The translations under genes and the position numbers were made by a program. A DNA stretch of 64,000 nt from an uncultured Staphylococcaceae bacterium (lineage in GTDB: Bacteria; Bacillota_I; Bacilli_A; RFN20; CAG-826): NCBI GenBank assembly GCA_964504595.1, contig CAZDEE010000001.1, positions 1,200 through 65,199 on the forward strand, written 5' to 3'. The notes under the pieces were generated by a model that saw nothing but the letters and a program-made list of their open reading frames with translations, made no database searches and had not been told where the DNA came from. Numbering within the stretch: the stretch's first letter is position 1; the number at the start of each line of letters is the position of its first letter. Positions 2,853 to 51,990 of the stretch are shown piece after piece.

Positions 2853-3070
2853 AAAATAAAAAAACGTCCAAATATAAGGACGTTATATTTACGCGGTACC
2901 ACCTTATTTCATGTTAGATAACATGCGCTTAATTAATCGTTAACGCCGAATTACGATCCTATTAAAGATTGCTCAAAAGTGGTATTTATTTAGTTTAAAT
3001 AGAAATCTTTCACCAATTAATTTCCTCTCTATAAATAAAGCATAAATAAACGTGTCTTTATCAACGCAAG
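2853..3070 (-). promoter_or_regulatory. T-box leader (tRNA-Thr sensing) with terminator/antiterminator
   Basis: On the minus strand I read UUGCGUUGAUAAAGAC, an AGAGA box, a GGUGAAAG distal-loop motif, and the specifier context AAAU-ACC-ACUUUUGAG (ACC = plus-strand GGT at 2981-2983). The T-box sequence GGUGGUACCGCG is the plus-strand CGCGGTACCACC at 2892-2903. The terminator stem is AACGUCC/GGACGUU (2863-2869 / 2878-2884) followed by a U-run. Confidence 0.88.
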
Positions 3071-3073
3071 ATT

Positions 3074-7597: not shown

Positions 7598-8311
7598 ATG
7601 AGCGATATTTTAGTAGAAACGCGTGGACTAACTAAAAAATATAAGGATGTTTTAGCTTTAGATTCAGTTAATCTTATATTGGAAAAAGGAAAAATTTATG
7701 GTTTGTTAGGTCCAAATGGAGCTGGTAAAACTACATTAATAAAAATCATAACAGGATTAATAAGAAATTATGAAGGACAAGTTTTTGTTAATGAGCAACC
7801 TTTAGGAATTGAATCAAAAAAGATAATTTCTTTCTTACCAGATCATGAGTATATTGATGATTCTTGGACAGTTAATTATGCACTAGAGTATTATGGAGAC
7901 TTTTTTGATGATTTTGATAAAGATAAAGCAATTAAATTATTTAAACAATTAGATATTCCTTTTGATAGGCACTTTAAAACATTATCGAAAGGCACAAAAG
8001 AAAAAGTTCAATTGATATTGTGTCTATCAAGAAAAGCGGAAATATATATATTTGATGAACCAATTGCGGGCGTAGATCCTGCTGCTAGAGACTTAATATT
8101 TAAGCTCATTATGGAAAACTATAATAATAAAGCTAGTATTTTAATATCTACCCATTTAATTGCAGATGCTGAAGGGATTCTTGATAATTTTATATTTATT
8201 AAAAAAGGTCGAATTGTTAAATTTGGTGATGTAAAGAAAGTGAAAGAAGAAACTGGTAAGACACTTGATGAAATATTTAGGGAGGATTTTAAATGTTTAA
8301 GCGACTTTTAA
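7598..8311 (+). CDS. ABC transporter ATP-binding protein (ABC-2/export type)
   Basis: Walker A is GPNGAGKTT and Walker B is IYIFDEP. A switch His lies in STHL. The signature motif is degenerate: LSKGTKEKV. Confidence 0.85.
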   Translation: MSDILVETRGLTKKYKDVLALDSVNLILEKGKIYGLLGPNGAGKTTLIKIITGLIRNYEGQVFVNEQPLGIESKKIISFLPDHEYIDDSWTVNYALEYYGDFFDDFDKDKAIKLFKQLDIPFDRHFKTLSKGTKEKVQLILCLSRKAEIYIFDEPIAGVDPAARDLIFKLIMENYNNKASILISTHLIADAEGILDNFIFIKKGRIVKFGDVKKVKEETGKTLDEIFREDFKCLSDF

Positions 8312-9090
8312 AGCATCAACTAAAAACAACATGGAAAGAGTTTAATATTGCTTATGCATTAGTAATTCTAGTAAGTGTGTTTTTAGGGATCTCAATCGTT
8401 AGTAAAAGCGATACTTTGATGGTCATTTCAATGATTTTATATGCTTTTTCTATTATTGGAGTTTTAGGATTAGCTATTAAGTTCTTCATAAAACTATTTT
8501 ATAGTTCAACTTATGGAAAACGAGCATTTTTAACTTTTACCTTACCAATTTCTACTCATTCACTCATTCTTTCAAAAATAGTTTCATCATTACTTTATTT
8601 ATTCGGATTCTTTTTATCCGGAACTATCTCAGTTTTAGTTTTATTATTAATTGTTGATGCAAGCAGCTTAAATGCAATATTCCCAGTTATTGGCGAGTTG
8701 TTATCTTTGATAAGTATCAATCCATTTATTTCGTTCTTATATATATTTGAAAGTGCAGTTTCTTTAGTTGCAGAACTTATATTAATTCAATTTGTGTGTG
8801 CTTATGCACAAACACTTACAAGTTCAAAAAAGAAAGAAAATATGGTATTTGTTATTTACATAGTTGCAAGCATGTTATTCGCAATTGTTATGGCAATGGA
8901 TCCTATTTCAATGCATGTAGCTTTGAATAATACAACCGGTAAGATAAGCTTTATTGTGTTAAATGAGACAAATTCTATGGATTATACTAGCGTGTTCTCT
9001 ATTTGGTCACTTCTTGTAGAAATTGGCAAAATGGTTGGAATGTATTTCTGGACAGTTCATATAATTGATAAAAAAATTGAAATCCAATAA
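8293..9090 (+). CDS. polytopic membrane protein, presumed ABC-2 permease partner
   Basis: 265 aa with about 6 hydrophobic segments. It overlaps the ATPase gene by 19 nt. I recognise no conserved motif. Confidence 0.5.
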   Translation: MFKRLLKHQLKTTWKEFNIAYALVILVSVFLGISIVSKSDTLMVISMILYAFSIIGVLGLAIKFFIKLFYSSTYGKRAFLTFTLPISTHSLILSKIVSSLLYLFGFFLSGTISVLVLLLIVDASSLNAIFPVIGELLSLISINPFISFLYIFESAVSLVAELILIQFVCAYAQTLTSSKKKENMVFVIYIVASMLFAIVMAMDPISMHVALNNTTGKISFIVLNETNSMDYTSVFSIWSLLVEIGKMVGMYFWTVHIIDKKIEIQ

Positions 9091-9093
9091 ATT

Positions 9094-9119
9094 GATGGAG
9101 TTTATCTCCATCTTTTTTT
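9094..9119 (+). terminator. intrinsic terminator after the ABC operon
   Basis: Stem GATGGAG/CTCCATC (9094-9100 / 9106-9112), a 5-nt loop and a run of 7 T. Confidence 0.8.
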
Positions 9120-9144
9120 CCACATTTTTAACGAATTATCCACA
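9116..9144 (+). promoter_or_regulatory. two direct DnaA-box-like 9-mers upstream of dnaB-dnaI
   Basis: TTTTCCACA at 9116-9124 has one mismatch to the consensus. TTATCCACA at 9136-9144 is a perfect match. Both have the same orientation and start 20 bp apart. Confidence 0.45.
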
Positions 9145-9161
9145 ACTTTTTTGCTGTTGTC

Positions 9162-9190
9162 TTTAAAAGATAAGTAAAAGAATATATAAT
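9162..9190 (+). promoter_or_regulatory. possible sigma-A promoter of dnaB-dnaI
   Basis: TTTAAA (9162-9167), a 17-nt spacer, then TATAAT (9185-9190). The -35 element is weak. Confidence 0.35.
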
Positions 9191-9212
9191 GTTAAGAAAT
9201 GGGGTGAGCGAT

Positions 9213-10475
9213 ATGAAATATGCAAAACAAGATGATTGGCTAGAAATAAGATTGGGAAGTATTATTAGTGATTATGATCGTCGATTACTTACAATTTTAT
9301 ATCAACCTCTTATTGGCTATACCTCTTTAGCCCTTTATTTTACTCTTTGGGCAGAACATGACCGTAAGGCATATCAAGAAATTTGCACTCATGAAAACTT
9401 ATTCACTTTTATGCAAATTTCCGCAAGTGAATTTCAAAAAGCAAAAGAAAAATTAGAAGCGGTGGGCTTATTAAGAACATATTATCGTGAAGATAAAGGA
9501 ATTTCTTATTTTGTTTATACATTGTATGCGCCAAAACAACCGGGTGATTTTTTTGAAGATCCATTATTTTCTGGATTATTTGAAAAGTATTTAGGTCATA
9601 TAGAAGCAACAAAGATTGCAAGAACTTTTACAACAAATCATGATTATAGTAATTTAAAAGAAATATCAGCATCGTTTAGTAGTGTTTTTCTACCTGACTT
9701 AGACGATCCTTGTTATAGTAAAGCTTCGACATTAGCTAAGGGAAGCAAAAGAAAAAAAGTTTATGGTGATGTCAAGTGTGAATTTGATTTTGGTACATTT
9801 TTTGATGTATTGAAAAATAAATATGGATTTGCTAGTGAAAAAATCTTTACTGCAAAAGAAAGAAAAGAAATTGAACGTGTCGCTACACTTTTTGGTTTAG
9901 ATGGCTCTTCTATGGCAGATGTTGTTAATCGTACCTATTATCGAAATGAGGATGGAAAGGCAATATTCCGTTTGGATTTATTAAAAAAATATTGTCAAGA
10001 TGAACTTTATTTTCCAAGTATGGGAAAAGTTAAAGGTACAAAAAGTCAAATTACTTCAACTTCTAGAATTGCAAAGAAAATTGAGCTTCTTGAAACGATG
10101 TCTTGTTATGAATATTTAAAAATAAAGCAAAACATGACAGAACCAGTCTCAAGTGACATAGCCTTAATTGATAGATTGTCTTCAAAATTAAAACTACCTC
10201 CAAGTGTTATTAATACCCTTGTGGATTATGTTTTAGATGTCAAAGATAATACGCTTCCGGCTTCTTTTACTGAAAAAATTGGCGCAAGTTTAGCTAGAGC
10301 AAATATCACAAACGCCCTTGATGCGATGAACTTCTTAAATAAAAAGCGATATAAGAAGAATGAACCAACTGAAGTAGTAAGTGGTGAAGTTCAACAAGAA
10401 GTTATTGAAAATGATAATCAAAATGATGAAGATGTTGATTTAGATACATTGATTAGAGAACTACAAGGAGAATAA
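9213..10475 (+). CDS. dnaB: replication initiation and membrane attachment protein (B. subtilis DnaB type, DnaD-like domains)
   Basis: The N-terminus reads ...DRRLLTILYQPLIGYTSLALYFTLW... and the C-terminal half is DnaD-like. dnaI lies immediately downstream, as in the Bacillus dnaB-dnaI operon. I chose the ATG at 9213 because it has a GGGGTGAG Shine-Dalgarno. Confidence 0.75.
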   Translation: MKYAKQDDWLEIRLGSIISDYDRRLLTILYQPLIGYTSLALYFTLWAEHDRKAYQEICTHENLFTFMQISASEFQKAKEKLEAVGLLRTYYREDKGISYFVYTLYAPKQPGDFFEDPLFSGLFEKYLGHIEATKIARTFTTNHDYSNLKEISASFSSVFLPDLDDPCYSKASTLAKGSKRKKVYGDVKCEFDFGTFFDVLKNKYGFASEKIFTAKERKEIERVATLFGLDGSSMADVVNRTYYRNEDGKAIFRLDLLKKYCQDELYFPSMGKVKGTKSQITSTSRIAKKIELLETMSCYEYLKIKQNMTEPVSSDIALIDRLSSKLKLPPSVINTLVDYVLDVKDNTLPASFTEKIGASLARANITNALDAMNFLNKKRYKKNEPTEVVSGEVQQEVIENDNQNDEDVDLDTLIRELQGE

Positions 10476-10477
10476 AA

Positions 10478-11386
10478 ATGAAAAAAGGAACAATAAAAAA
10501 AATATTAATAAGCAATGATTTAGATCGATTTAAAGAAGAAGAATTAAATGCTTTATATAATGATTCATTAATGCAAAAGTACTTAAGTGAATTGAATATA
10601 AATGTAGAACTTGTTAATGAATATTTAGATATTTTTCTTGATATAAATGATGATTTACATTATTGCGCTTCTTGTCCGGGTCTAGAAAAATGCAAAAAAA
10701 AGAATCCTTGTTTATTAATAAAGCCAGAAATTGATGGAGACTATATTGAAAGAAAAATGGTATTCTGTCCAAAAATGATTCAAAAAAGAGAATTAGAAAA
10801 TAAGTTTATTACCCGTGATTTCAATTATGAATGGGTTGGAAAATCAATGTACAATAAAGTGGATTTTGATATTTCGGAGATAAGAAAACCTTTGATTATT
10901 AAATGCCGAGATTTATTAAAAAGTGACTCGAAAGATTGGTTATATCTATATGGGCCAAGTAGATTAGGAAAATCATATATTGTTGCGATACTAATTCAAG
11001 ATTTGTTGAAAAAGAATGAAGGGGAAAAATGTGCATTTCTTGATTCACCAACTCGAATTAAAGAGCTAAATGATTTATCATTCACAAATAAAGAAGAGTT
11101 TAATGAGCTTTTAAAAAAATATATGAATGTCGATTATTTAGTATTAGATGATTTTGGTAATGAGTATAAAAATGAATATATAAGAGATACAATTATCTAT
11201 CCTTTATTAAGTTATCGCGCAAAAGAAAATAAGCCAGTTTATTTTACTTCTCATTACAGTATAAAAGATTTAGTTTCATTATATGGAATTAATTCTTTAG
11301 GAAAAATCAAATCTCAATCATTAGGTGATTTGATTAAGATAATGTCGAAAAAAGAGATTCATTTAGAAGGAGTTAAAATCTATTAA
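10478..11386 (+). CDS. dnaI: primosomal helicase loader DnaI
   Basis: The N-terminal Cys cluster is CASCPGLEKC...C. The AAA+ Walker A is GPSRLGKSY and Walker B is LVLDDFG. Confidence 0.85.
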   Translation: MKKGTIKKILISNDLDRFKEEELNALYNDSLMQKYLSELNINVELVNEYLDIFLDINDDLHYCASCPGLEKCKKKNPCLLIKPEIDGDYIERKMVFCPKMIQKRELENKFITRDFNYEWVGKSMYNKVDFDISEIRKPLIIKCRDLLKSDSKDWLYLYGPSRLGKSYIVAILIQDLLKKNEGEKCAFLDSPTRIKELNDLSFTNKEEFNELLKKYMNVDYLVLDDFGNEYKNEYIRDTIIYPLLSYRAKENKPVYFTSHYSIKDLVSLYGINSLGKIKSQSLGDLIKIMSKKEIHLEGVKIY

Positions 11387-11467
11387 CTTTTGTGTAAAAA
11401 AAAGATAAAAAGAAACTATATTTAACTTATTAAACATAATTAACTTTTTATCAAAAAATATAAACCA

Positions 11468-12871
11468 CTAATTGTGTGATAAATTACTTATTATTTCATA
11501 TAGCATTGAACGTAGTGTTTCAATGCTATTTTTTGTATCTAAATAATAGGTAACAGCATCAGAATAAGGGTATTCTTCGCCAAGATAGTTCATTTTAATC
11601 ATTTTATCGATTTGAGCTTGATTTCTTTTTGAAAGGTTTCTGTATTGGTTTTTGTTATTAATCTTAATTGCAATAGTTATAGTGCATAAATCATCAAAGT
11701 TAGATTCAAATAGAAGAGGAATTTCTAAAGTAATAATATTTTTTTTAGATTTATTAATAAAATTAATAAGCTTTTCTCTAACTAAAGGATGGATAAATTT
11801 ATCTAGCGTTTTAAGTTTACTATTATCGTTTGCAATAGCATTTCTAAGTAATTCTTTATTAAAATCTCCATTTTCTGTAATAAGATTGATTTTAAGTAAC
11901 TTCTCAATTTCTTTAATAATATGAATATCTTTATATAAAGAAGATACAACATCATCACATGAAATGGTATCAGTTCCTAATTCTTTTAATATTTTAAGTG
12001 CGGTTGATTTACCTGATCCAATCGCACCTGTTAATCCGATAATAGTTTTATTAGTTAGTTTTTGACATCTTGGACAATAAGTTGTGCCTCTTCCTCCAAC
12101 AGTAGTTTTTAATAATTTACTGCCGCAAATAGGACATGATTGTCCTTTTTTTCCATAGACTAAGAGTTCCTCTTGGAATAGACCATTTACTTCTCTAGAA
12201 GCATGATATGATTTAATTGTTGAGCCTCCTAATTCAATTGCTTTTAATAAAGTTCTTTTTGAGGCTTCTAAAATGTTTTTCCAATCATCTTCTAAGAGTG
12301 TTTTTGCAATTCTTTGCGGATGTATTTTAGCTAGAAATAAGGTTTCATCGACATAAATATTTCCTAATCCAGAGACAAAAGTTTGATCTAAAAGAAGTGA
12401 TTTGATAGGCTTTGTAGATTTTTTCCCCTTTTCATATAAAACTTTATAATCATCAATTTCTAAAGGTTCTTGCCCTAAAGAACTTAACCAACAATCAGAG
12501 ATTAATTCATTTTGATGTACAATCTTCATGACTCCAAATTTACGTGAATCATCGTAGCAGACTTTTTGATTGCTATCTAAATAAAAGATAACTCGAGCAA
12601 AACGGCTATTATCTTCATTTAAATCATAAAAATAATATTTGCCTTCCATTCTTAAATGAGATATCAAAGCGTAATTATTTTCAAATTTAAATATTAGATA
12701 CTTTCCTTTTCTATCAATATCTGTAATTTTTGTATTTTTTATTAAATTTAAACTCTCTAATGAAGAATGAATCATTCTTCCGTATAGGACTTCAATCTCA
12801 ATAAATGCATGGCCTACTAATCGAGGTGATAATATTCTTCTTATAGTTTCTACTTCAGGTAATTCAGGCAT
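11468..12871 (-). CDS. in-frame fusion of formamidopyrimidine-DNA glycosylase (Fpg/MutM) and dephospho-CoA kinase (CoaE)
   Basis: The N-terminus MPELPEVETIRR carries the catalytic Pro2. The zinc finger CPICG...CPRCQK ends the Fpg part. After a linker of about 5 aa comes the CoaE P-loop IIGLTGAIGSGKST and a complete CoaE-like body. There is no stop between the two halves. The start at 12871 has a GAGGTGAG Shine-Dalgarno. Confidence 0.85.
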   Translation of the reverse strand: MPELPEVETIRRILSPRLVGHAFIEIEVLYGRMIHSSLESLNLIKNTKITDIDRKGKYLIFKFENNYALISHLRMEGKYYFYDLNEDNSRFARVIFYLDSNQKVCYDDSRKFGVMKIVHQNELISDCWLSSLGQEPLEIDDYKVLYEKGKKSTKPIKSLLLDQTFVSGLGNIYVDETLFLAKIHPQRIAKTLLEDDWKNILEASKRTLLKAIELGGSTIKSYHASREVNGLFQEELLVYGKKGQSCPICGSKLLKTTVGGRGTTYCPRCQKLTNKTIIGLTGAIGSGKSTALKILKELGTDTISCDDVVSSLYKDIHIIKEIEKLLKINLITENGDFNKELLRNAIANDNSKLKTLDKFIHPLVREKLINFINKSKKNIITLEIPLLFESNFDDLCTITIAIKINNKNQYRNLSKRNQAQIDKMIKMNYLGEEYPYSDAVTYYLDTKNSIETLRSMLYEIISNLSHN

Positions 12872-12882
12872 ATGTCTCACCT

Positions 12883-15483
12883 CTATTTTGCATCGTACCA
12901 TGTTTTTGCGTAGCTTCCATCAACTTTTAATGGAGTCGCAAAAGACATTGAGTTTTCCATTGTTTCAACGACGAGATTTGTAACTTCTTCAATATCATCT
13001 TTATGAACTTTAAAGATTAATTCATCATGTATTTGAAGAACCATTTTAGCTCGAAGATTAGAAGAAGATAGCTTTTCATCGATTTTAATCATCGCTATTT
13101 TAATTAAATCGGCAGCAGTACCTTGTATTGGAGCGTTCATTGCGGCACGCTTAGCAAATTCACGTACTTGATATGATGAATCATGAATTTCTCGAAGATA
13201 TCTTCTTCTTCCTAAAACAGTGGTTACATAGCCATTTTGTTCAGCGTTAGAGACTATATCTCTTAAATAAATGCCAATTTCTGGATAAGCGCTATAGAAT
13301 GAATTAATGATATTCTTAGCTTCTTTAGGGGTCACATTTATTTGTTCGCTTAGTCCCCAGTCGGATATACCATAAACAATACCAAAATTAACCGCTTTTG
13401 CTTTTCTTCTTAATGAAGATGGAACTTCACCTTCGATGTTAAAAATGTGTCTAGCGGTTACTTCGTGAATATCTTCGCCGTTTTTAAATGCTTCAATTAA
13501 TTTCGTACAATTAGAAAGACTTGCTAATATTCTAAGTTCGATTTGAGAATAGTCCATTGATAATATATATGTGTTTTCATCATCATAATAAAAGGCTTTA
13601 CGAATTGATTTTCCTTCTTCATCGCGAACAGAAATATTTTGGAGATTAGGTTCGCTACTAGAAAGTCTTCCTGTAGTAGTTAAAGCTTGATTAAATATAG
13701 CGTGTAATTTACTGTCTTCAAATAAGTAGTTTTCTAAGCCGTCAATATATGTTGATACAAGTTTAGCGTATTTGCGATGTTCTAGAATAAGATTTACAAT
13801 TGGATGATATTGAACAAGTGTTTTTAAAACATCCATTGATGTTGACCCTTTTCTTTGATTTGGAAGTCCTATTTTATCATATAGAATTGATGCAACTTGC
13901 TTTGGTGAAGATATATTAAATTCTTCGCCTGCTTCAAGATATATTTTTTGGGTTATATCATTTAGCTTTTCTTTAAATTGTTGTCCAATTTCGCGAAGAG
14001 TATTGATATTTAAAGGAAATCCTTCAATTTCCATTTTTGCTAAAACATTGCATAATGGGCATTCAACATTTAAAAATAAATCTAAAGCATTATTTTCTTT
14101 TAAATCTTTAAGTACTTCTGAAGAAATTTCTTTTGAATAATAAGCAATTTCACCCGTTCTTTTTATATTAGAAGTGTTAAAAAGGCTAATTTCTTCATTA
14201 TGAGAAATTGAAATATTGAAATAGGAAAATATAGCATCTTCTTCATTAATTAAAGAAGAATCTAATAGATATGATGCAAGTAAAAGATCAAATTTTAATC
14301 CTTCTAATCCGATATCATAACGATTTAAAAGAACTTTAATTGCTTTATAATCGAAACAATATTTTTCTATTTCTTTATCTTTTAACCAATCTTTAAGGGA
14401 AGAATCGTTAATTAAATTATCTTTTGAAATATAATATGTTTTTCCATCAAATGAGATACCTAAACCAAATAATTCCGCCTTATGATATGAAGTGTTTTCT
14501 TTATCAATTGCGATTCCGATGGCCTTTGGTTTAATAAAACCTGAAAAAGAGGAAATTTCAATAACATCAACAGAGTGGACAATTTCTTTTGTAATTTTTG
14601 ATTTTCCTTGGACACTAATTTTAGAAAGTAGTTGCTTTAGCTCATAACGAGAGCAGAAAGAACTTATTTCTTTAAAATCATATCCTAAATATTCTGTTGA
14701 TTCTAGGGTAAAGTTTAAAGGTACATCGATAATAATTTTAGCTAAATGTTTACACATTTTACCTAATTCAGCATTAGCAACAATTTTTTCGCCCAATTTT
14801 GAATTCATATTTGGAGCGGCTTCTATTATCGACTCCAAAGTTCCGTATTCTTGAATTAACTTGATTGCGGTTTTATCACCGACGCCAGGAATTCCTGGAA
14901 GATTATCACTGGAATCGCCACGTAATCCTTTATAGTCAAGGATTTGTAGAGGAGTAAATCCGTATTTTTCAACCATGTTTTCATTATTGATTATTTCAAC
15001 TTCAGAAAGTCCTTTTTTAAGAATATGAATTTCAATTTTATCATCGATTAGTTGAAGAAAATCTTTGTCAGATGTATATATTTCGACATCGTATCCTTCT
15101 TTGGCGGCCTTTTTTGCAGCAGTACCCGCAACATCATCGCCTTCATAACCTTCGATTTCGGCGGTAAAGACACCTAAAGCATGTAGAAGTTCTCGCGCCA
15201 AAGGCATTTGAATACTTAGTTCTTCTGGACATGGTTTACGATTTGCTTTATATGTATCTAATTCACTATGTCTAAATGTTTTTTTACCAGTATCAAAGGC
15301 AACGATAATATGTTCATCGCTTTTAAAAGATGAAATAATTTTATTAATCATATTTCCGAAAGCAAATAATGCGTTTGTTGGAACTCCGTCTTTTGTTTTC
15401 ATGATTGTAGCGCCTGGATAACTTGTGGCATAGAACGCTCTAAAAAGCAATGAATTACCATCTATAACTAATAATTTTGGCAT
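12883..15483 (-). CDS. polA: DNA polymerase I
   Basis: The 5'-nuclease domain shows LLVIDGNSLLFRAFYA and GIPGVGDKTA. The polymerase motifs are DYSQIELR, RRKAKAVNFGIVYG and QIHDEL. The start at 15483 follows GGGAGG. Confidence 0.97.
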   Translation of the reverse strand: MPKLLVIDGNSLLFRAFYATSYPGATIMKTKDGVPTNALFAFGNMINKIISSFKSDEHIIVAFDTGKKTFRHSELDTYKANRKPCPEELSIQMPLARELLHALGVFTAEIEGYEGDDVAGTAAKKAAKEGYDVEIYTSDKDFLQLIDDKIEIHILKKGLSEVEIINNENMVEKYGFTPLQILDYKGLRGDSSDNLPGIPGVGDKTAIKLIQEYGTLESIIEAAPNMNSKLGEKIVANAELGKMCKHLAKIIIDVPLNFTLESTEYLGYDFKEISSFCSRYELKQLLSKISVQGKSKITKEIVHSVDVIEISSFSGFIKPKAIGIAIDKENTSYHKAELFGLGISFDGKTYYISKDNLINDSSLKDWLKDKEIEKYCFDYKAIKVLLNRYDIGLEGLKFDLLLASYLLDSSLINEEDAIFSYFNISISHNEEISLFNTSNIKRTGEIAYYSKEISSEVLKDLKENNALDLFLNVECPLCNVLAKMEIEGFPLNINTLREIGQQFKEKLNDITQKIYLEAGEEFNISSPKQVASILYDKIGLPNQRKGSTSMDVLKTLVQYHPIVNLILEHRKYAKLVSTYIDGLENYLFEDSKLHAIFNQALTTTGRLSSSEPNLQNISVRDEEGKSIRKAFYYDDENTYILSMDYSQIELRILASLSNCTKLIEAFKNGEDIHEVTARHIFNIEGEVPSSLRRKAKAVNFGIVYGISDWGLSEQINVTPKEAKNIINSFYSAYPEIGIYLRDIVSNAEQNGYVTTVLGRRRYLREIHDSSYQVREFAKRAAMNAPIQGTAADLIKIAMIKIDEKLSSSNLRAKMVLQIHDELIFKVHKDDIEEVTNLVVETMENSMSFATPLKVDGSYAKTWYDAK

Positions 15484-26631: not shown

Positions 26632-27099
26632 TTATAAATGATAGGCGACGCAATTAAGGCCCCCCATAATTCCTTGCAAAATATTTAAAGGCATATTCAA
26701 AATTGCTACAGAAAAGCCAAAAAATGCAAAATCTGGGATAAAATATATACAACCCATTATAAATCCAGCGATGAATAATGATAGATATTTTAACTTTTCG
26801 CTTTTGATGTTCTTAAAAAAATAACCTGCTAAGAATCCTTCTAATCCTTTTGCGATAATTGTAAAAGGAATATAAGTAGTATAACCAGAAATTAAATCAC
26901 ATATTGCACCGCTACAAATACCAATAATCATTCCACCTACAGGAAAAGTGATGTTCGAACCAATTATAATTAGGGCATCAGATAAGTTAAGATAACCACT
27001 GTTAGAGGAAAGAGGTATGATAATAATCAGCGTTACAACAATAGTTAATGCAGTTAAGGCACTAATTTCGGATATACATTTTACTCTATCATTCATCAT
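26632..27099 (-). CDS. small 5-6-TM membrane protein, resembles an ECF-transporter S (substrate-capture) component
   Basis: 155 aa, Gly-rich and hydrophobic (…GGMIIGICSGAICDLISG…). The size and topology fit S components. The substrate is unknown. It overlaps the upstream DUF523 gene by 11 nt. Confidence 0.4.
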   Translation of the reverse strand: MMNDRVKCISEISALTALTIVVTLIIIIPLSSNSGYLNLSDALIIIGSNITFPVGGMIIGICSGAICDLISGYTTYIPFTIIAKGLEGFLAGYFFKNIKSEKLKYLSLFIAGFIMGCIYFIPDFAFFGFSVAILNMPLNILQGIMGGLNCVAYHL

Positions 27100-27645: not shown

Positions 27646-28287
27646 ATGAAGGAATATATTATTAATACATCGATTGATTATAAAGGTAAAAAAATTCAAA
27701 TTAATATAACTTATAAAAAAGTTAAAAATATCAATTTTCGCATTAGAAATGGTGCCCTTCATGTTTCTGCACCTCGAGTTGTAAGTGTTGCTTATATTAA
27801 GAATGCCTGCCTTCATTTGAATGAAAGGTTATTAAATAAATTAATTTCGGAAGATGATATAGGCGAAGAATATATCTATATACTCGGTGAGAAAAGAAAA
27901 CTAAGATATATTCTCGATGATGATATAGAAAATGCGATTACATATCGAAATCAAAGTGATTTGGAACGTAAAATTAAATCTTTGGCTTTAGATATTATTA
28001 CTGATCGAGTTCGATATTATGAAGATATAATGAATATTAAACCTTCATATAAAGTAACTGTTAAAAAAATGTCAACGAGATATGGATCTAATTCAAGAAG
28101 AACTCATTCATTGTCATTTTCATTGACTTTAATTCACTATCCAATTAGTGTTATAGATGCGGTTGTCGTTCATGAACTAGCTCATTATCGACAATTTAAT
28201 CATTCTAAAGCTTTTTATGATGAAATAAATAGATATTATCCAATGTACAAACAGGAAATAAAAAAATTAAAAGGAGGTCATTGCTAA
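27646..28287 (+). CDS. YgjP-like (DUF45/M48-related) metal-dependent hydrolase
   Basis: A C-terminal HELAHY (HExxH) motif follows RYGSNS. The overall layout matches the YgjP family. Confidence 0.8.
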   Translation: MKEYIINTSIDYKGKKIQINITYKKVKNINFRIRNGALHVSAPRVVSVAYIKNACLHLNERLLNKLISEDDIGEEYIYILGEKRKLRYILDDDIENAITYRNQSDLERKIKSLALDIITDRVRYYEDIMNIKPSYKVTVKKMSTRYGSNSRRTHSLSFSLTLIHYPISVIDAVVVHELAHYRQFNHSKAFYDEINRYYPMYKQEIKKLKGGHC

Positions 28288-29027
28288 TGATTCATTATAT
28301 TACTAGTAGAACAAATACAAGAATAAAAGATTTATTAACATTGAAAGACTCTAAAATAAGAAAAGAAAGAGGATTGTTTCTTGTTGAAGGTTTCCATCTT
28401 TTAGAGATGGCTTTAGAGGCTGATCAAGTAGAATTAATAATTACTGAGAAGATTATTGATAATATTCCTGAACATATTGACCAACTTGTTGTGACTCATG
28501 ATGTTATTAAAAAGTTCTCTAGTCAAGTTACACCTCAAGGCGTTATTGTTGTATGTAAATTAAAAGAAAGACAATTATCTTATGGAAATCGCATTTTATA
28601 TTTAGATGGTATTTCTGATCCAGGGAATTTAGGAACGATATTAAGAACTGCAGTTTCCTTTGGATTTAATGATATAATTTTATCTAAGGGAAGTTGTTCT
28701 CCATATAATGAGAAAGTATTATCATCTTCTCAAGGAGCAATTTTTAATTTACAAATTCAAGAAGGCGAAGCTTCAATTTTAAATTCTTTAAAACAAAAGG
28801 ACTATCAAATTTTAGCTACTTATCTTCATGGAGGAAAGCCGATTGAACAAGTTAGATTAAATAAGAAAGTCGTTTTAGTAATTGGAAATGAAAGTCATGG
28901 AGTTAGTGATGATTCTTTGTCTTTAGCGGATGAAAAAGTTTTCATTCCAATGAAAGTTATGGAATCTTTAAATGTTGGTGTTGCTACTGGAATATTGTGT
29001 TATTACGTTGATAGTACGCTAAAATAA
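28287..29027 (+). CDS. TrmH/SpoU-family RNA 2'-O-methyltransferase (YsgA-like)
   Basis: LVEGFHLL, DGISDPGNLGTILRTA, VIGNESHGVS and SLNVGVATGI are SPOUT motifs. The ATG at 28287 forms a TAATG overlap with the upstream stop and has an AAGGAGG Shine-Dalgarno. Confidence 0.85.
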   Translation: MIHYITSRTNTRIKDLLTLKDSKIRKERGLFLVEGFHLLEMALEADQVELIITEKIIDNIPEHIDQLVVTHDVIKKFSSQVTPQGVIVVCKLKERQLSYGNRILYLDGISDPGNLGTILRTAVSFGFNDIILSKGSCSPYNEKVLSSSQGAIFNLQIQEGEASILNSLKQKDYQILATYLHGGKPIEQVRLNKKVVLVIGNESHGVSDDSLSLADEKVFIPMKVMESLNVGVATGILCYYVDSTLK

Positions 29028-29081
29028 TTTATAAAGAATAGTCAAGTTTTTTAACTTGCTAAAATGGAAGTGGGTGAGGTT

Positions 29082-30404
29082 ATGAAAAAGAAATATCTAG
29101 ATATGAATGTTTATGAAGCTCTTCAAGAGAGATTTAAATTTATCTTTGAAGAATTCGAAAATATATATGTTTCTTTTAGTGGAGGTAAAGATAGTGGCCT
29201 TCTTTTAAACTTACTTATGGACTATATGGAAAAACATAATATTAAAAAGAAAATTGGTGTCTTTCATCAAGATTTTGAGGCCCAGTACACTTTGACTGTT
29301 GAATATGTTAAAAGGACGTTTGATAAATATTTAGATCGTATTGAACCTTTTTGGGTATGCTTACCAATGGCGACTAGAACTGCTTTAAGTAGTTATCAAA
29401 CATTTTGGTATCCATGGGATGATCATAAAGAAGATATTTGGGTAAGACCAATGCCAGATGTTCCTTATTTAATACATTTGGGAAATAATCCTTTTAGTTT
29501 GTATAAATATCGTATGCACCAAGAAGATTTGGCTAAACAATTTGGTAGATGGTATAAAGAAACTCATGGGAAAAAGAAAACAATTTGTCTTTTGGGTATT
29601 AGAGCAATGGAATCCTTGTCCCGTTATAGTGGCTTTGTTAATAAAAGATATGGATATAAAGGACAATGTTATATAACGAAGCAATTTAAAGATGTTTATT
29701 GTGGTTCACCACTATATGATTGGACTGTTAGTGATGTATGGACCGCGAATTATCGATTTGGATATGACTATAATAAGTTATATGATCTTTATTATAAGGC
29801 TGGGTTGAAGCCATCTCAAATGCGGGTAGCATCTCCTTTTAATGATTACGCAAAAGAGAGTTTAAATCTTTACCGCGTTCTTGAACCGGATTTATGGACA
29901 AAATTAGTTGGTCGAGTTCAAGGTGCTAATTTTGGGGCAATATATGGAAGAACTAAAGCGATGGGGTATCGTAATGTCACACTTCCTGAAGGTTATACAT
30001 GGAAAGAGTATACAAAATTTTTATTAGATACCTTGCCTAAGAAATTACGTTCTAGTTATATTAAAAAGTTTAATACATCAATTAAGTTTTGGCATTCTAT
30101 CGGAGGAGGACTTCCAGAAGACGCTATTAAAGAGATAGAAGCCAGAGGTTATCAAATTAGAAGAAATGGAGTTTCTAATTATACAAAAGATAAGAAGACA
30201 AGAATTATATTTATTGGAAGTATTCCAGATCATACCGATGATGTTCATTTAACAAAGGATATTCCATCATGGAAAAGAATGTGCTATTGCATTTTAAAAA
30301 ATGATCATACTTGTCGATTTTTAGGTTTTGGATTAACTAGAGAACAGCAAGTGCGTATCGATGCGTTATCGAAAAAATATAAAGTTGTGGAGGAAATTAT
30401 ATGA
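29082..30404 (+). CDS. PP-loop ATP pyrophosphatase of the PAPS-reductase family with a long C-terminal DUF3440-like extension (IbrA-like)
   Basis: A PP-loop, VSFSGGKDSG, lies near the N-terminus. LGIRAMES is present. The C-terminal region reads ...IPSWKRMCYCILKNDHTCRFLGFGLT. The start is uncertain, either 29064 or 29082. Confidence 0.72.
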   Translation: MKKKYLDMNVYEALQERFKFIFEEFENIYVSFSGGKDSGLLLNLLMDYMEKHNIKKKIGVFHQDFEAQYTLTVEYVKRTFDKYLDRIEPFWVCLPMATRTALSSYQTFWYPWDDHKEDIWVRPMPDVPYLIHLGNNPFSLYKYRMHQEDLAKQFGRWYKETHGKKKTICLLGIRAMESLSRYSGFVNKRYGYKGQCYITKQFKDVYCGSPLYDWTVSDVWTANYRFGYDYNKLYDLYYKAGLKPSQMRVASPFNDYAKESLNLYRVLEPDLWTKLVGRVQGANFGAIYGRTKAMGYRNVTLPEGYTWKEYTKFLLDTLPKKLRSSYIKKFNTSIKFWHSIGGGLPEDAIKEIEARGYQIRRNGVSNYTKDKKTRIIFIGSIPDHTDDVHLTKDIPSWKRMCYCILKNDHTCRFLGFGLTREQQVRIDALSKKYKVVEEII

Positions 30405-30943
30405 GTTCTTATAAAAGTCCAGTCTATAATATCATCGCGGTTCCGATTGAGAAGATTGTACCAAATGTTTATAATCCTAATTCAGTCGCCCCACCAGAAA
30501 TGGCATTATTATATGATTCTATAAAACAAGATGGCTACACAATGCCGATTGTTTGTTATTACGATAAGGAAAATGATCAATATATTATTGTTGATGGATT
30601 CCACCGTTATCGTATTATGCTCGACCATCAAGATATTTATGATAGAGAAAATGGGATGATACCTGTTTCTGTTATTAATAAATCTCTTGATCAAAGAATG
30701 GCATCCACAATTAGGCATAACCGCGCAAGAGGAAGCCATGATGTTGATTTAATGAGTAATATAATTCGTGAATTGCACGAAATAGGCCGCAGTGATGCTT
30801 GGATAAGCAAACACTTAGGTATGGATAAAGATGAAATATTAAGATTAAAACAGATAACAGGATTAACAGAATTATTTAAAGATAGCGAATTTTCGACTTC
30901 ATGGGAACCTGAAGAAGATTCGGTTTTAACAAATGATGATTAA
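30401..30943 (+). CDS. ParB/sulfiredoxin-fold nuclease-like protein (IbrB-like)
   Basis: NPNSV, VDGFHRYRI and RHNRARGSH motifs are present. Its ATG overlaps the stop of the upstream gene (ATGA), which implies translational coupling. Confidence 0.72.
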   Translation: MSSYKSPVYNIIAVPIEKIVPNVYNPNSVAPPEMALLYDSIKQDGYTMPIVCYYDKENDQYIIVDGFHRYRIMLDHQDIYDRENGMIPVSVINKSLDQRMASTIRHNRARGSHDVDLMSNIIRELHEIGRSDAWISKHLGMDKDEILRLKQITGLTELFKDSEFSTSWEPEEDSVLTNDD

Positions 30944-31037: not shown

Positions 31038-31040
31038 CTA

Positions 31041-31254
31041 GTCGTGCGTTGAAAAGAAGTAGTAATAAGTCTCTTTCTAGCTAGGGAAAAGCGAAATAGT
31101 GGAACCGCTTTGTAGAAATGCTTATGAATTCACCTTGGAGTACAGGCTTTGCTCGTGACTAGCGTTAATAGTTAAATTAAGTGCGTTTTCTATTTTAGAC
31201 GAAGTAGGATGGTATCGCGGCGAAAGTCGTTCCTTAGTGAAGCGACTTTTTTTA
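31041..31254 (+). promoter_or_regulatory. T-box leader (tRNA-Phe sensing)
   Basis: A GUGCGUUGAAAAGAAG start and an AGUGGAACCGC distal motif are present. The specifier context is GAA-UUC-A (TTC at 31129-31131). The T-box sequence GAUGGUAUCGCG lies at 31208-31219. The terminator stem is AAAGTCG/CGACTTT (31223-31229 / 31243-31249) followed by a T-run. Confidence 0.88.
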
Positions 31255-51764: not shown

Positions 51765-51990
51765 TTCGAAAAACGAAGAGAAAGACGCGATGCTATATAA
51801 ACTAGTCTTAGCGAGATGATATTTGGTGCAAGGTCATTGACATAGGATATGGTATTATCACTTTTGAGTTGGTTTAGGGAAATTAGTAACTAAACCCGTT
51901 ATAGTACGTTACACTAAATAGAGGGCTAGAGATATTCTAGAACTAAGGTGGTACCGCGTTAACAGCGTCCTTAGATAGGACGTTTTTTTA
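51765..51990 (+). promoter_or_regulatory. T-box leader (tRNA-Ile sensing)
   Basis: An AGAGAAAG box and a GGUGCAAGG distal motif are present. The specifier context is UAUU-AUC-ACUUUUGAG (ATC at 51857-51859). GGUGGUACCGCG lies at 51947-51958. The terminator is GCGTCC/GGACGT (51965-51970 / 51978-51983) followed by a T-run. Confidence 0.88.

Follow-up and report, generated by a model that had tools for sequence, protein, structure and literature searches.

IbrA and IbrB of Escherichia coli are reported to activate the prophage eib genes, and we know of no other phenotype reported for them. The genes encoding their relatives YbdN and YbdM form the E. coli ybdNM operon, which is repressed by CitR/YbdO and stands under this dedicated LysR repressor and H-NS (PMC9068703), and the Listeria pair (lmo1309/1310, core genes) has been entered in TASmania, on guilt by association, as a putative toxin-antitoxin (PMC7020466). 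The Dnd and Dpd systems combine an enzyme that modifies DNA with a ParB-like ATPase (PMC12839542). In agreement with an earlier annotation of the locus described here (hereafter the original prediction), which had called the biochemical activity of IbrA/IbrB undefined, a literature search on IbrA/IbrB, ybdN/ybdM and DUF3440 gave no biochemical characterisation. Here we analyse such a pair of genes in a 64,000-nucleotide stretch of contig CAZDEE010000001.1 (positions 1,200 to 65,199) of an uncultured Staphylococcaceae bacterium, hereafter referred to as the window. The pair consists of two open reading frames (ORFs), ORF1 and then ORF2, both on the + strand, and occupies positions 29064–30943 according to the ORF list, the coordinates of which we confirmed.

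ORF1 and ORF2 constitute an intact member of the IbrA/IbrB (E. coli YbdN/YbdM) two-gene family. ORF1 is 31% identical to YbdN of E. coli K-12 (E 6e-67) and ORF2 is 49% identical to YbdM (E 2e-55), both matches covering most of the two proteins compared; because of these matches, we assign the pair to the IbrA/IbrB family, as originally predicted, and not to DndC/DndB. In line with this assignment, RefSeq names such proteins 'PAPS reductase/DUF3440' and 'IbrB-like domain-containing protein', and the homologues in UniRef and NCBI bear the names 'IbrB-like' and 'DUF3440'. Profile searches with ORF1 (hereafter IbrA) matched DUF3440 (PF11922; E 3.7e-84, 281 bits against a cutoff of 25, profile positions 1–180 of 182) and PAPS_reduct (PF01507; E 6.8e-11, 42.9 bits against a cutoff of 22.5), both above the cutoffs, and the PP-loop that had been read from the sequence is present as SGGKDS. 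ORF2 (hereafter IbrB) matched ParB_N with 23.8 bits (E 4.6e-5), just below the cutoff of 26.3. Its ParB assignment nevertheless holds, as every homologue of ORF2 has a precomputed PF02195 match, the AlphaFold model gives Foldseek matches of this class (see below) and the identity to YbdM is as high as 49%. The domain assignments of the original prediction are correct, and the ORF2 motifs DGFHR and RHNRARG, which it had noted, are present and lie among the most conserved columns of 115 relatives.

The pair has long been inherited vertically in the junction between SpoU and pheS of this low-GC Firmicute lineage, under strong purifying selection. We compared the junctions of relatives by anchoring them on homologues of the SpoU gene that lies upstream of the pair; the identities given below are those to the window SpoU. 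The pair is followed by pheS in L001 (83%) and by three small ORFs and then pheS in L086 and L087 (58%); it is also present in L133 (64%), the contig of which ends before the position of pheS. With L001, a 93%-identical relative, the synonymous divergence (dS) was 0.93 for IbrA and 1.14 for IbrB, compared with 0.57–1.30 for the flanking genes, and the ratio of nonsynonymous to synonymous divergence (dN/dS) was 0.049 and 0.044, respectively, compared with 0.049 for pheS. With L086, the identities were 85% for IbrA, 87% for IbrB, 78% for pheS, 65% for pheT and 58% for SpoU. GC content and codon usage of the pair are host-like, the GC content at third codon positions being slightly raised (0.217 and 0.244 versus a window mean of 0.178, standard deviation 0.029). 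Occupation of the same slot in four lineages (SpoU 58–83%), a dS like that of the flanks and a dN/dS like that of pheS together mark the pair as an old resident, and a recent horizontal insertion is ruled out by the agreement in dS and by the host-like codon usage.

Relatives that lack the pair carry other genes in the slot. These are a Sel1-TIR protein and others in L081 and L082 (71%; in L081, 7764–13345, a 1175-residue Sel1+TIR_2 protein and a 680-residue protein), four unknown genes in L083 (62%; 8046–13628), one of them encoding a WYL-domain protein, an FtsK/SpoIIIE-like protein and small ORFs in L084 and L085 (64%; in L084, 8211–14672, 1081 residues followed by eight small ORFs), and a Sel1-repeat protein, a rubredoxin and DegV in L088 (57%; 7790–10388). 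In L089 (50%), which is more distant, pheS follows directly. The slot therefore contains the pair in four lineages, other cargo in four and nothing in one more distant relative, and its contents differ so much among lineages that we regard it as a variable cargo site; it resembles a hotspot at which different lineages keep accessory or defence-like genes of their own. The original prediction had viewed the pair as a module inserted into a housekeeping junction and had named strict conservation in all relatives, combined with the absence of a modification or phenotype on deletion, as an outcome that would speak for an ordinary core pair. Such conservation was not seen, and variable presence at the junction is borne out; an insertion that is recent or mobile is contradicted by dS, dN/dS, codon usage and the occurrence in four lineages.

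We evaluated the conservation of IbrA residues in an alignment of 48 diverse proteins reaching down to 30% identity, with which a 40-sequence alignment agreed. V10, S38, D64, E66, S178, D213, D218, N231, Y234, R278 and D408 were invariant, and the remainder of the PP-loop, G172, R174, E177 and C93 were near-invariant. The PP-loop, DxE, RxxES and YDW motifs are invariant or near-invariant. The AlphaFold model of IbrA (predicted local distance difference test score, pLDDT, 86) was matched by Foldseek to CysH, flavin mononucleotide (FMN) adenylyltransferase (FMNAT)/flavin adenine dinucleotide (FAD) synthase and CysD, in each case over the first ~245 residues only; a profile search of the PDB placed FAD synthase (E 1.6e-8) and CysD first, and NCBIfam gave weak partial matches to the TtcA and TilS models. 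The conserved motifs and these nearest folds and profiles indicate that IbrA is an ATP-using enzyme. In the secondary structure of the model, the DUF3440 domain is largely helical with a small alpha/beta insert. No relative of this domain among solved structures emerged from sequence and profile searches of the PDB or from a whole-chain Foldseek search, in which the N-terminal domain dominated the matches. IbrA is strongly basic (net charge +20, isoelectric point (pI) 9.3), as is the segment of residues 245–440, slightly wider than DUF3440 (net +13, pI 9.6). The Cys-containing C-terminal extension noted in the original prediction, PSWKRMCYCILKNDHTCR, is present at residues 395–412 and lies within DUF3440. 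Its cysteines, C401, C403 and C411, vary in distant members, leaving C93 as the only near-invariant cysteine, and YbdN has alanine at position 93. IbrA thus has no conserved set of Fe-S cysteines, and an Fe-S mechanism of the DndC type is unlikely.

IbrB was modelled with a pLDDT of 76 and has a disordered acidic tail at the end of its 180 residues. Its Foldseek matches to Noc, KorB and ParB (7nfu, 8qa9, 7ol9, 7bnr and 6sdk; E 6e-7 to 1e-5, template modelling score about 0.5) span the N-terminal domain and the helix-turn-helix (HTH), about 148 columns, whereas matches to the sulfiredoxin and free serine kinase folds are confined to the first domain; SerK is a weak NCBIfam match. YNPN, DGFHR and RHNRARG are about 98% conserved in the 115 relatives, which include phage and E. 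coli copies. In the alignment with Noc, the sequence GFHRYR corresponds to GERRWR, with G66, R69 and R71 retained, and is predicted to be a nucleotide-binding box. IbrB is acidic (net charge −11, pI 4.9), the HTH segment having a net charge of −2. It is 60–68% identical among the Firmicute of the window, Lactobacillus and Streptococcus phages and a Mycobacterium phage.

Table 1. Features of the IbrA/IbrB locus (window positions)
Feature	Position	Strand	Basis
SpoU/TrmH-family RNA 2'-O-methyltransferase, upstream boundary	28287..29027	+	Pfam SpoU_methylase 2.7e-36, MRM3-like_sub_bind 1.5e-14
Extended −10 promoter-like box TGCTAAAAT, just 5' of ORF1 (weak, consensus-level call)	29057..29065	+	Read from sequence
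IbrA/YbdN-type protein, 440 residues: PAPS-reductase-like PP-loop domain and DUF3440	29082..30404	+	Pfam, homology
PP-loop ATP-binding motif SGGKDS, residues 33–38	29178..29195	+	Near-invariant in 48 diverse members, S38 invariant
GIRAMES motif, residues 172–178, Arg/Glu/Ser loop of PAPS-reductase-like subfamily	29595..29615	+	G172, R174, E177 near-invariant; S178 invariant
DUF3440 domain, residues 247–429	29820..30368	+	Pfam 3.7e-84
ATGA overlap, ORF2 ATG 30401–30403 / ORF1 TGA 30402–30404	30401..30404	+	Read from sequence
IbrB/YbdM-type protein, 180 residues: ParB/sulfiredoxin-fold N-terminal domain, helix-turn-helix and acidic tail	30401..30943	+	Pfam, homology, model
YNPN motif, residues 24–27, aligns with ParB box I region (NPxQPR)	30470..30481	+	Invariant in 115 relatives; Noc alignment
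DGFHR motif, residues 65–69, aligns with ParB GERRxR nucleoside triphosphate-binding box	30593..30607	+	Conservation, Noc alignment
RHNRARG arginine-rich motif, residues 105–111	30713..30733	+	At least 98% conserved in 115 relatives
pheST T-box leader, downstream boundary	31040..31237	+	Rfam RF00230, 87.9 bits, E 6.5e-20

The gene boundaries in Table 1 differ in two places from those of the ORF finder. For ORF1, the ATG at 29082 (MKKKYL...) is most likely the start, rather than the ATG at 29064 assumed in the original prediction, because it yields the length of the closest homologues, 440 residues, because the starts in other loci align with it and because 29064 has no ribosome-binding site. 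For SpoU, which also has an NCBIfam RlmB-like match below the cutoff, the length of the homologues (246 residues) and the sequence favour, within 28281–28289, ATG 28287 over TTG 28281; this ATG overlaps the stop codon of YgjP by one base (TAATG). The ATGA overlap of ORF1 and ORF2, correctly read beforehand, makes the two genes translationally coupled, ORF2 having the ribosome-binding site GGAGGA 7 nucleotides 5' of its start. In relatives, the two genes overlap by 4–11 nucleotides or lie a few nucleotides apart.

The wider surroundings of the pair are housekeeping. On the upstream side lie glgB, glgP, an M42 peptidase gene, an energy-coupling factor (ECF) S component gene, a TudS-like desulfidase gene, YgjP and SpoU, and on the downstream side the T-box leader, the score of which is 5 bits below the Rfam gathering score, pheS (start 31274), pheT, YceD, MraZ, RsmH, a penicillin-binding protein gene and a Mur ligase gene. 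The trmH-like gene and the pheST leader named as flanks in the original prediction are thus confirmed. The TudS-like gene (2-thiouracil-desulfurase family, PF04463; 27089–27529, − strand) overlaps the gene for the ECF-type S component (26632–27099, − strand) by 11 nucleotides, and the two are kept 5' of YgjP-SpoU in most relatives. Two more T-box leaders, both above the Rfam gathering score, occur in the window at 2873–3073 (− strand, 107 bits) and 51767–51975 (+ strand, 105 bits). In L133 (144–3416) and L086 (6360–9621), YgjP, SpoU, IbrA and IbrB are packed with 4-nucleotide overlaps or no gap, in the manner of a four-gene operon; the SpoU stop overlaps the IbrA start in L133, and IbrA starts on the base right after the SpoU stop in L086.

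A 54-nucleotide spacer separates SpoU from ORF1 in the window and holds the promoter-like box of Table 1, which a strict two-hexamer promoter scan did not report. TGnTAnAAT-like boxes also precede the pair in other loci. A common operator 5' of the pair was sought and rejected, since only ordinary promoter-like boxes (TTGACA/TTGAAT, extended −10) are found there across loci, and the palindrome CAAGTT-N4-AACTTG of the window recurs loosely in two loci only. We also rejected an embedded parS-like site, for which we scanned codon alignments (94 IbrA genes, 104 IbrB genes) for stretches of lowered synonymous variation. The sole outlier, IbrA codons 103–114 (z −4.6), reflects a codon-family effect rather than a DNA motif, since two serines there are always encoded by AGY. 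They are the adjacent S103 and S104 (29388–29393); almost all the 94 homologues encode both with AGY, and a few have another residue at one of the two positions.

The family is very widespread. ORF1 matches more than 7,900 clusters at 90% identity, most of its best matches being 70–76% identical and coming from Lachnospiraceae, Oscillospiraceae and Erysipelotrichaceae; ORF2 has at least 8,000 relatives at about 80% identity, and clustering at 50% reduces the whole family to 366 representatives with E<=1e-30. Of 5,426 complete E. coli genomes, 5,401 carry ybdNM; a single genome may hold as many as five copies, and plasmids account for 84 of the locations. Relatives also occur on 710 PLSDB plasmids, in 225 phage records and in an archaeal virus. 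In view of the number of clusters and the near-universal presence of ybdNM in E. coli, the window copy is an ordinary member of a known family and does not represent special biology of the window, although it had been proposed as the best candidate for uncharacterised biology there. In the Lachnospiraceae, many samples show the pair stably embedded in surroundings of ordinary metabolic genes. A contig binned as 'Alloprevotella sp.' (L011, 63–1887; a metagenome-assembled genome assigned to Bacteroidota) encodes a pair with 75% and 81% identity to that of the window, which reflects either horizontal transfer from Firmicutes or the placing of the contig in the wrong bin. On Klebsiella and E. coli IncF plasmids (L134 and L135), the module lies near hok, RES-Xre toxin-antitoxin genes, iro genes and insertion sequence elements. 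Among longer family representatives, apparent domain fusions with pieces of ABC_tran, PGA_cap and PRC look like chimeric or truncated gene calls and were discarded; the sole clean fusion is gp104 of Mycobacterium phage Nebkiss (L124, 5308–6207), in which the IbrB domain follows an N-terminal ectoine-synthase-like cupin (PF06339, E 1.3e-32).

To describe what accompanies the pair, we used 80 genome loci, in all of which IbrA precedes IbrB wherever the contig allows the order to be seen. All-against-all clustering of the neighbouring ORFs recovered the two families of the pair in 78 and 69 loci and the next family in 11. With only two families shared among the loci, no third gene is conserved with the pair in bacteria, which agrees with its original description as a stand-alone pair. 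In 33 non-redundant bacterial contexts, the two genes on each side (129 proteins) span 148 different Pfam families, none with more than three members, and PADLOC matched only a dGTPase, a GlgB-type model and WYL-domain models among them. These unrelated neighbours with almost no PADLOC matches rule out a defence-island location for the bacterial family. DndA (a cysteine desulfurase), DndD, DndE and a restriction partner were found neither in the window flanks nor among the shared neighbours of the 80 loci or the 129 flanking genes. The lack of integrase, restriction, Fe-S and cysteine-desulfurase partners stated in the original prediction is confirmed for the flanks in the window.

Phages contain the pair as part of a three-gene module, SNF2 helicase-IbrA-IbrB, which we found in Lactobacillus phage CR28, Streptococcus thermophilus phage D4276, Streptococcus equinus phages PY3 and PY7 and many IMG/VR contigs. 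IbrA and IbrB of these modules are 42–67% and 60–81% identical, respectively, to those of the window, with the same order and coupling. They differ in the SNF2-related helicase of about 390–450 residues that is encoded directly 5' of IbrA (about 390–410 residues in CR28 and D4276). It consists of SNF2-rel_dom and Helicase_C (PF00176 and PF00271) and weakly resembles the defence helicases ZorD, DrmD and DpdE. A homologue occupies this position in 24 of the 35 viral loci, among them CR28 and D4276, which are isolated phages, whereas it was found in none of 89 bacterial loci and not in the window. The phage modules sit in early or lysogeny-replacement regions. In D4276 (L123, 3978–7759), the trio lies two genes 3' of the anti-CRISPR gene AcrIIA5, between lysis genes and cro-like genes, and in Nebkiss, the gene 5' of IbrA encodes a PD-(D/E)XK-like protein and not SNF2. 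SNF2 enzymes translocate on double-stranded DNA, and the phage partner gives the strongest indication, if an indirect one, that the substrate is DNA.

We tentatively propose, as a plausible reading, that IbrB, as a ParB-like protein, and IbrA, as a PP-loop enzyme, make up a self-contained complex whose target is nucleic acid, probably DNA. The coupled products would associate, IbrB serving as a cut-down ParB/KorB/Noc-type, nucleotide-gated targeting or regulatory subunit. The SGGKDS PP-loop of IbrA would split ATP between the alpha and beta phosphates and adenylylate a group on the nucleic acid, most probably DNA, which might thereby be primed for substitution or transfer. The outcome could be a covalent mark that alters how the DNA is read and so affects gene expression or DNA recognition; such a mark would fit the eib activation reported for E. 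coli IbrAB. A complex of the two proteins with no need of a third gene is suggested by the conserved gene order, the restriction of shared families to two, the ATGA coupling and the complementary charges of IbrA and IbrB. DNA is pointed to by the ParB N-terminal domain and HTH of the IbrB model, the retained G66, R69 and R71, the basic DUF3440, the phage SNF2 enzyme and the ParB-like partners in Dnd and Dpd. The chemistry is probably not phosphorothioation of the Dnd type, as there is neither a conserved Fe-S cysteine cluster nor a dedicated desulfurase.

Several observations weigh against this proposal, all the mechanistic steps of which are inferred. DNA binding by IbrB is not assured, given its acidity and its ParB_N score below the Pfam cutoff. 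Among solved structures, those nearest to the IbrA core belong to proteins with small molecules (FMN, sulfate and 3'-phosphoadenosine 5'-phosphosulfate), not nucleic acids, as substrates. The bacterial copies are without the SNF2 helicase, so what the phage modules suggest may not apply to them. Conservation as high as that of the pair is unusual for restriction-modification-like or conflict systems, and neither defence nor mobile-element genes are enriched in the 33 bacterial contexts. Finally, an RNA target would fit too, as the pair is packed right behind an RNA methyltransferase gene in this lineage.

KorB, a repressor as well as a clamp, is among the best fold matches of IbrB, and the pair might accordingly be a transcription regulator or anti-silencing pair, in which a KorB-like, DNA-bound and nucleotide-gated IbrB switches on genes that would otherwise be silent, often horizontally acquired ones, and IbrA is an accessory or co-activator, its enzymatic fold being used for sensing and not for modifying DNA. 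The control of ybdNM itself by a dedicated LysR repressor and H-NS (PMC9068703) and the pair's own promoter-like box in many genomes are consistent with such a role. We consider it unlikely: the invariance of SGGKDS, DxE and RxxES across phyla and phages argues for real enzymatic turnover, no conserved operator-like site was found 5' of or within the genes, and 60–80% identity across phyla is not what one would expect of a regulator, which should co-evolve with targets that differ among lineages.

A different reading follows the IbrA matches themselves, FAD synthase, CysD and CysH being at the top of both the profile and the fold searches. IbrA could be an FMNAT- or CysD-like adenylyltransferase and IbrB, which matches the sulfiredoxin and free serine kinase folds and weakly SerK, a phosphotransferase of that kind, the two making or repairing a small molecule, a metabolite or signal that is phosphorylated or adenylylated. 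The bacterial contexts are housekeeping or metabolic rather than defence, and dN/dS is like that of a core enzyme. Nevertheless, IbrB fits ParB/Noc/KorB over both domains better than it fits the single-domain folds, no metabolic genes consistently co-occur with the pair, the phage copies lie beside an SNF2 translocase in early or replication regions, and IbrA is highly basic. We regard this possibility as rather improbable.

Most characterised PP-loop enzymes of nucleic acids act on tRNA, and IbrA might adenylate a base of tRNA or rRNA as TilS, ThiI, TtcA and MnmA do, with IbrB as a specificity or chaperone subunit. The weak partial matches to TtcA and TilS, the position of the pair after the SpoU methyltransferase gene, overlapping or abutting in L133 and L086, and a conservation so high that it would suit a universally conserved RNA substrate could be understood in this way. 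The linkage to SpoU is, however, confined to this lineage; a SpoU-family gene lies within 8 kb in 3 of 79 other loci, where a rough estimate of chance gives 1–2. Close relatives dispense with the pair, IbrA lacks conserved Fe-S cysteines like those of TtcA/TtuA, and both the ParB/HTH partner and the SNF2 translocase of phages speak for double-stranded DNA. Modification of RNA is, in our judgement, quite improbable.

Least of all do we expect a conflict module, which in bacteria would provide anti-phage defence or act as a toxin-antitoxin and in phages and plasmids would provide counter-defence: the TIR-Sel1, WYL and FtsK-like cargo in the same slot of relatives, the phage and plasmid copies, the position of the D4276 trio near AcrIIA5 and the TASmania listing of the Listeria pair (PMC7020466) would suit it, but PADLOC gives no full match, only partial DndC and BrxP ones, the 129 flanking genes are essentially without defence or mobile-element genes, ybdNM and lmo1309/1310 are core genes of E. 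coli and Listeria, and evolution is slow and purifying, not diversifying.

The proposal that IbrA and IbrB form a complex acting on nucleic acid can be carried further, in a form that we consider possible but rather unlikely. The pair would be a self-sufficient two-protein nucleic-acid marking system of a new chemical type, in which a ParB-like, nucleotide-gated loader brings a non-Fe-S PP-loop adenylating enzyme to DNA, and the mark would be neither methylation nor phosphorothioation nor 7-deazaguanine. Phages would have added the SNF2 translocase to mark their own genomes processively, and chromosomal copies such as that of the window and ybdNM would serve epigenetic control of expression. 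A new DNA- or RNA-marking chemistry, if true, would matter for bacterial epigenetics, for phage-host conflict and for modification signals in metagenomic long reads. The window copy adds little by itself, as the family is annotated everywhere and is more tractable in E. coli (ybdNM) or Listeria (lmo1309/1310). The family as a whole is one of the more striking conserved unknowns. Its near-identical members in gut Firmicutes number in the thousands, and its rate of evolution is as low as that of an aminoacyl-tRNA synthetase gene, although close relatives manage without the pair. Three comparative facts sharpen the experiments: the lack of a conserved third gene in bacteria, the SNF2 partner found only in phages and the lack of an Fe-S cysteine signature.

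Among known systems, DndC/DndB, with which the original prediction had compared the pair, and also SspD and BrxP, resemble it in joining a PAPS-reductase-like PP-loop enzyme to a ParB/sulfiredoxin-fold protein with a DGxHR-type motif, and hidden Markov models detect a weak partial similarity. This likeness of pairing stands, but it is distant. The DndC equivalog TIGR03183 scores 22.5 bits with IbrA against a cutoff of 290.4, only residues 170–246 being aligned; PADLOC 2.0 gave partial DndC (30 bits) and BrxP matches for IbrA, none for IbrB and no full-length match of a defence-system protein to the pair. IbrA has DUF3440 in place of the C-terminal region of DndC and lacks a conserved cluster of cysteines that could hold an Fe-S centre. 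Because of the model scores, the cysteine pattern and the lack of partner genes, we reject membership in Dnd, Ssp or BREX type 4.

CysH, CysD and eukaryotic FMN adenylyltransferase share the fold of the N-terminal 245 residues of IbrA and its YDW and RxxES motifs. The identities are only 13–17% (14–15% in the structural comparison with CysH), and IbrA has the additional DUF3440 of 190 residues. CysH ends in a tail with the catalytic cysteine, ECGLH, whereas the C-terminus of IbrA is DUF3440, and no CysH family model is among its NCBIfam matches.

The CTP (cytidine triphosphate)-dependent clamps ParB, Noc and KorB share with IbrB the predicted fold of the N-terminal domain and HTH, and the G-x-(H/R)-R-x-R box is partly kept. 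Canonical ParB has QPR in box I and ENLQR in box III, where IbrB has YNPN and RHNRARG, respectively. With 180 residues, IbrB is shorter, without the C-terminal dimerisation domain and without a ParA partner; no ParA gene was found near the pair and no conserved parS-like palindrome was detected. In 7-deazaguanine DNA modification by DpdA/DpdB, a ParB-like ATPase likewise serves a DNA-modifying enzyme (PMC12839542), and the Dpd clusters include the SNF2-type helicase DpdE, the models of which are weakly matched by the helicase linked to phage IbrAB. The catalytic partner there is a homologue of tRNA-guanine transglycosylase and not a PP-loop enzyme, with no sequence relationship to IbrA.

E. 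coli YbdN/YbdM differ from the window pair in that YbdN lacks an alpha/beta insert of ~40 residues (about residues 350–390 of the window protein) and has alanine for C93, and YbdM has an N-terminal extension; the E. coli pair also adjoins the gene for its own LysR repressor CitR/YbdO, a regulator that the window pair does not have beside it. The PAPS_reduct and DUF3440 architecture of IbrA, the IbrB-like ParB_N protein, the gene order and the overlap of the genes are the same in the two.

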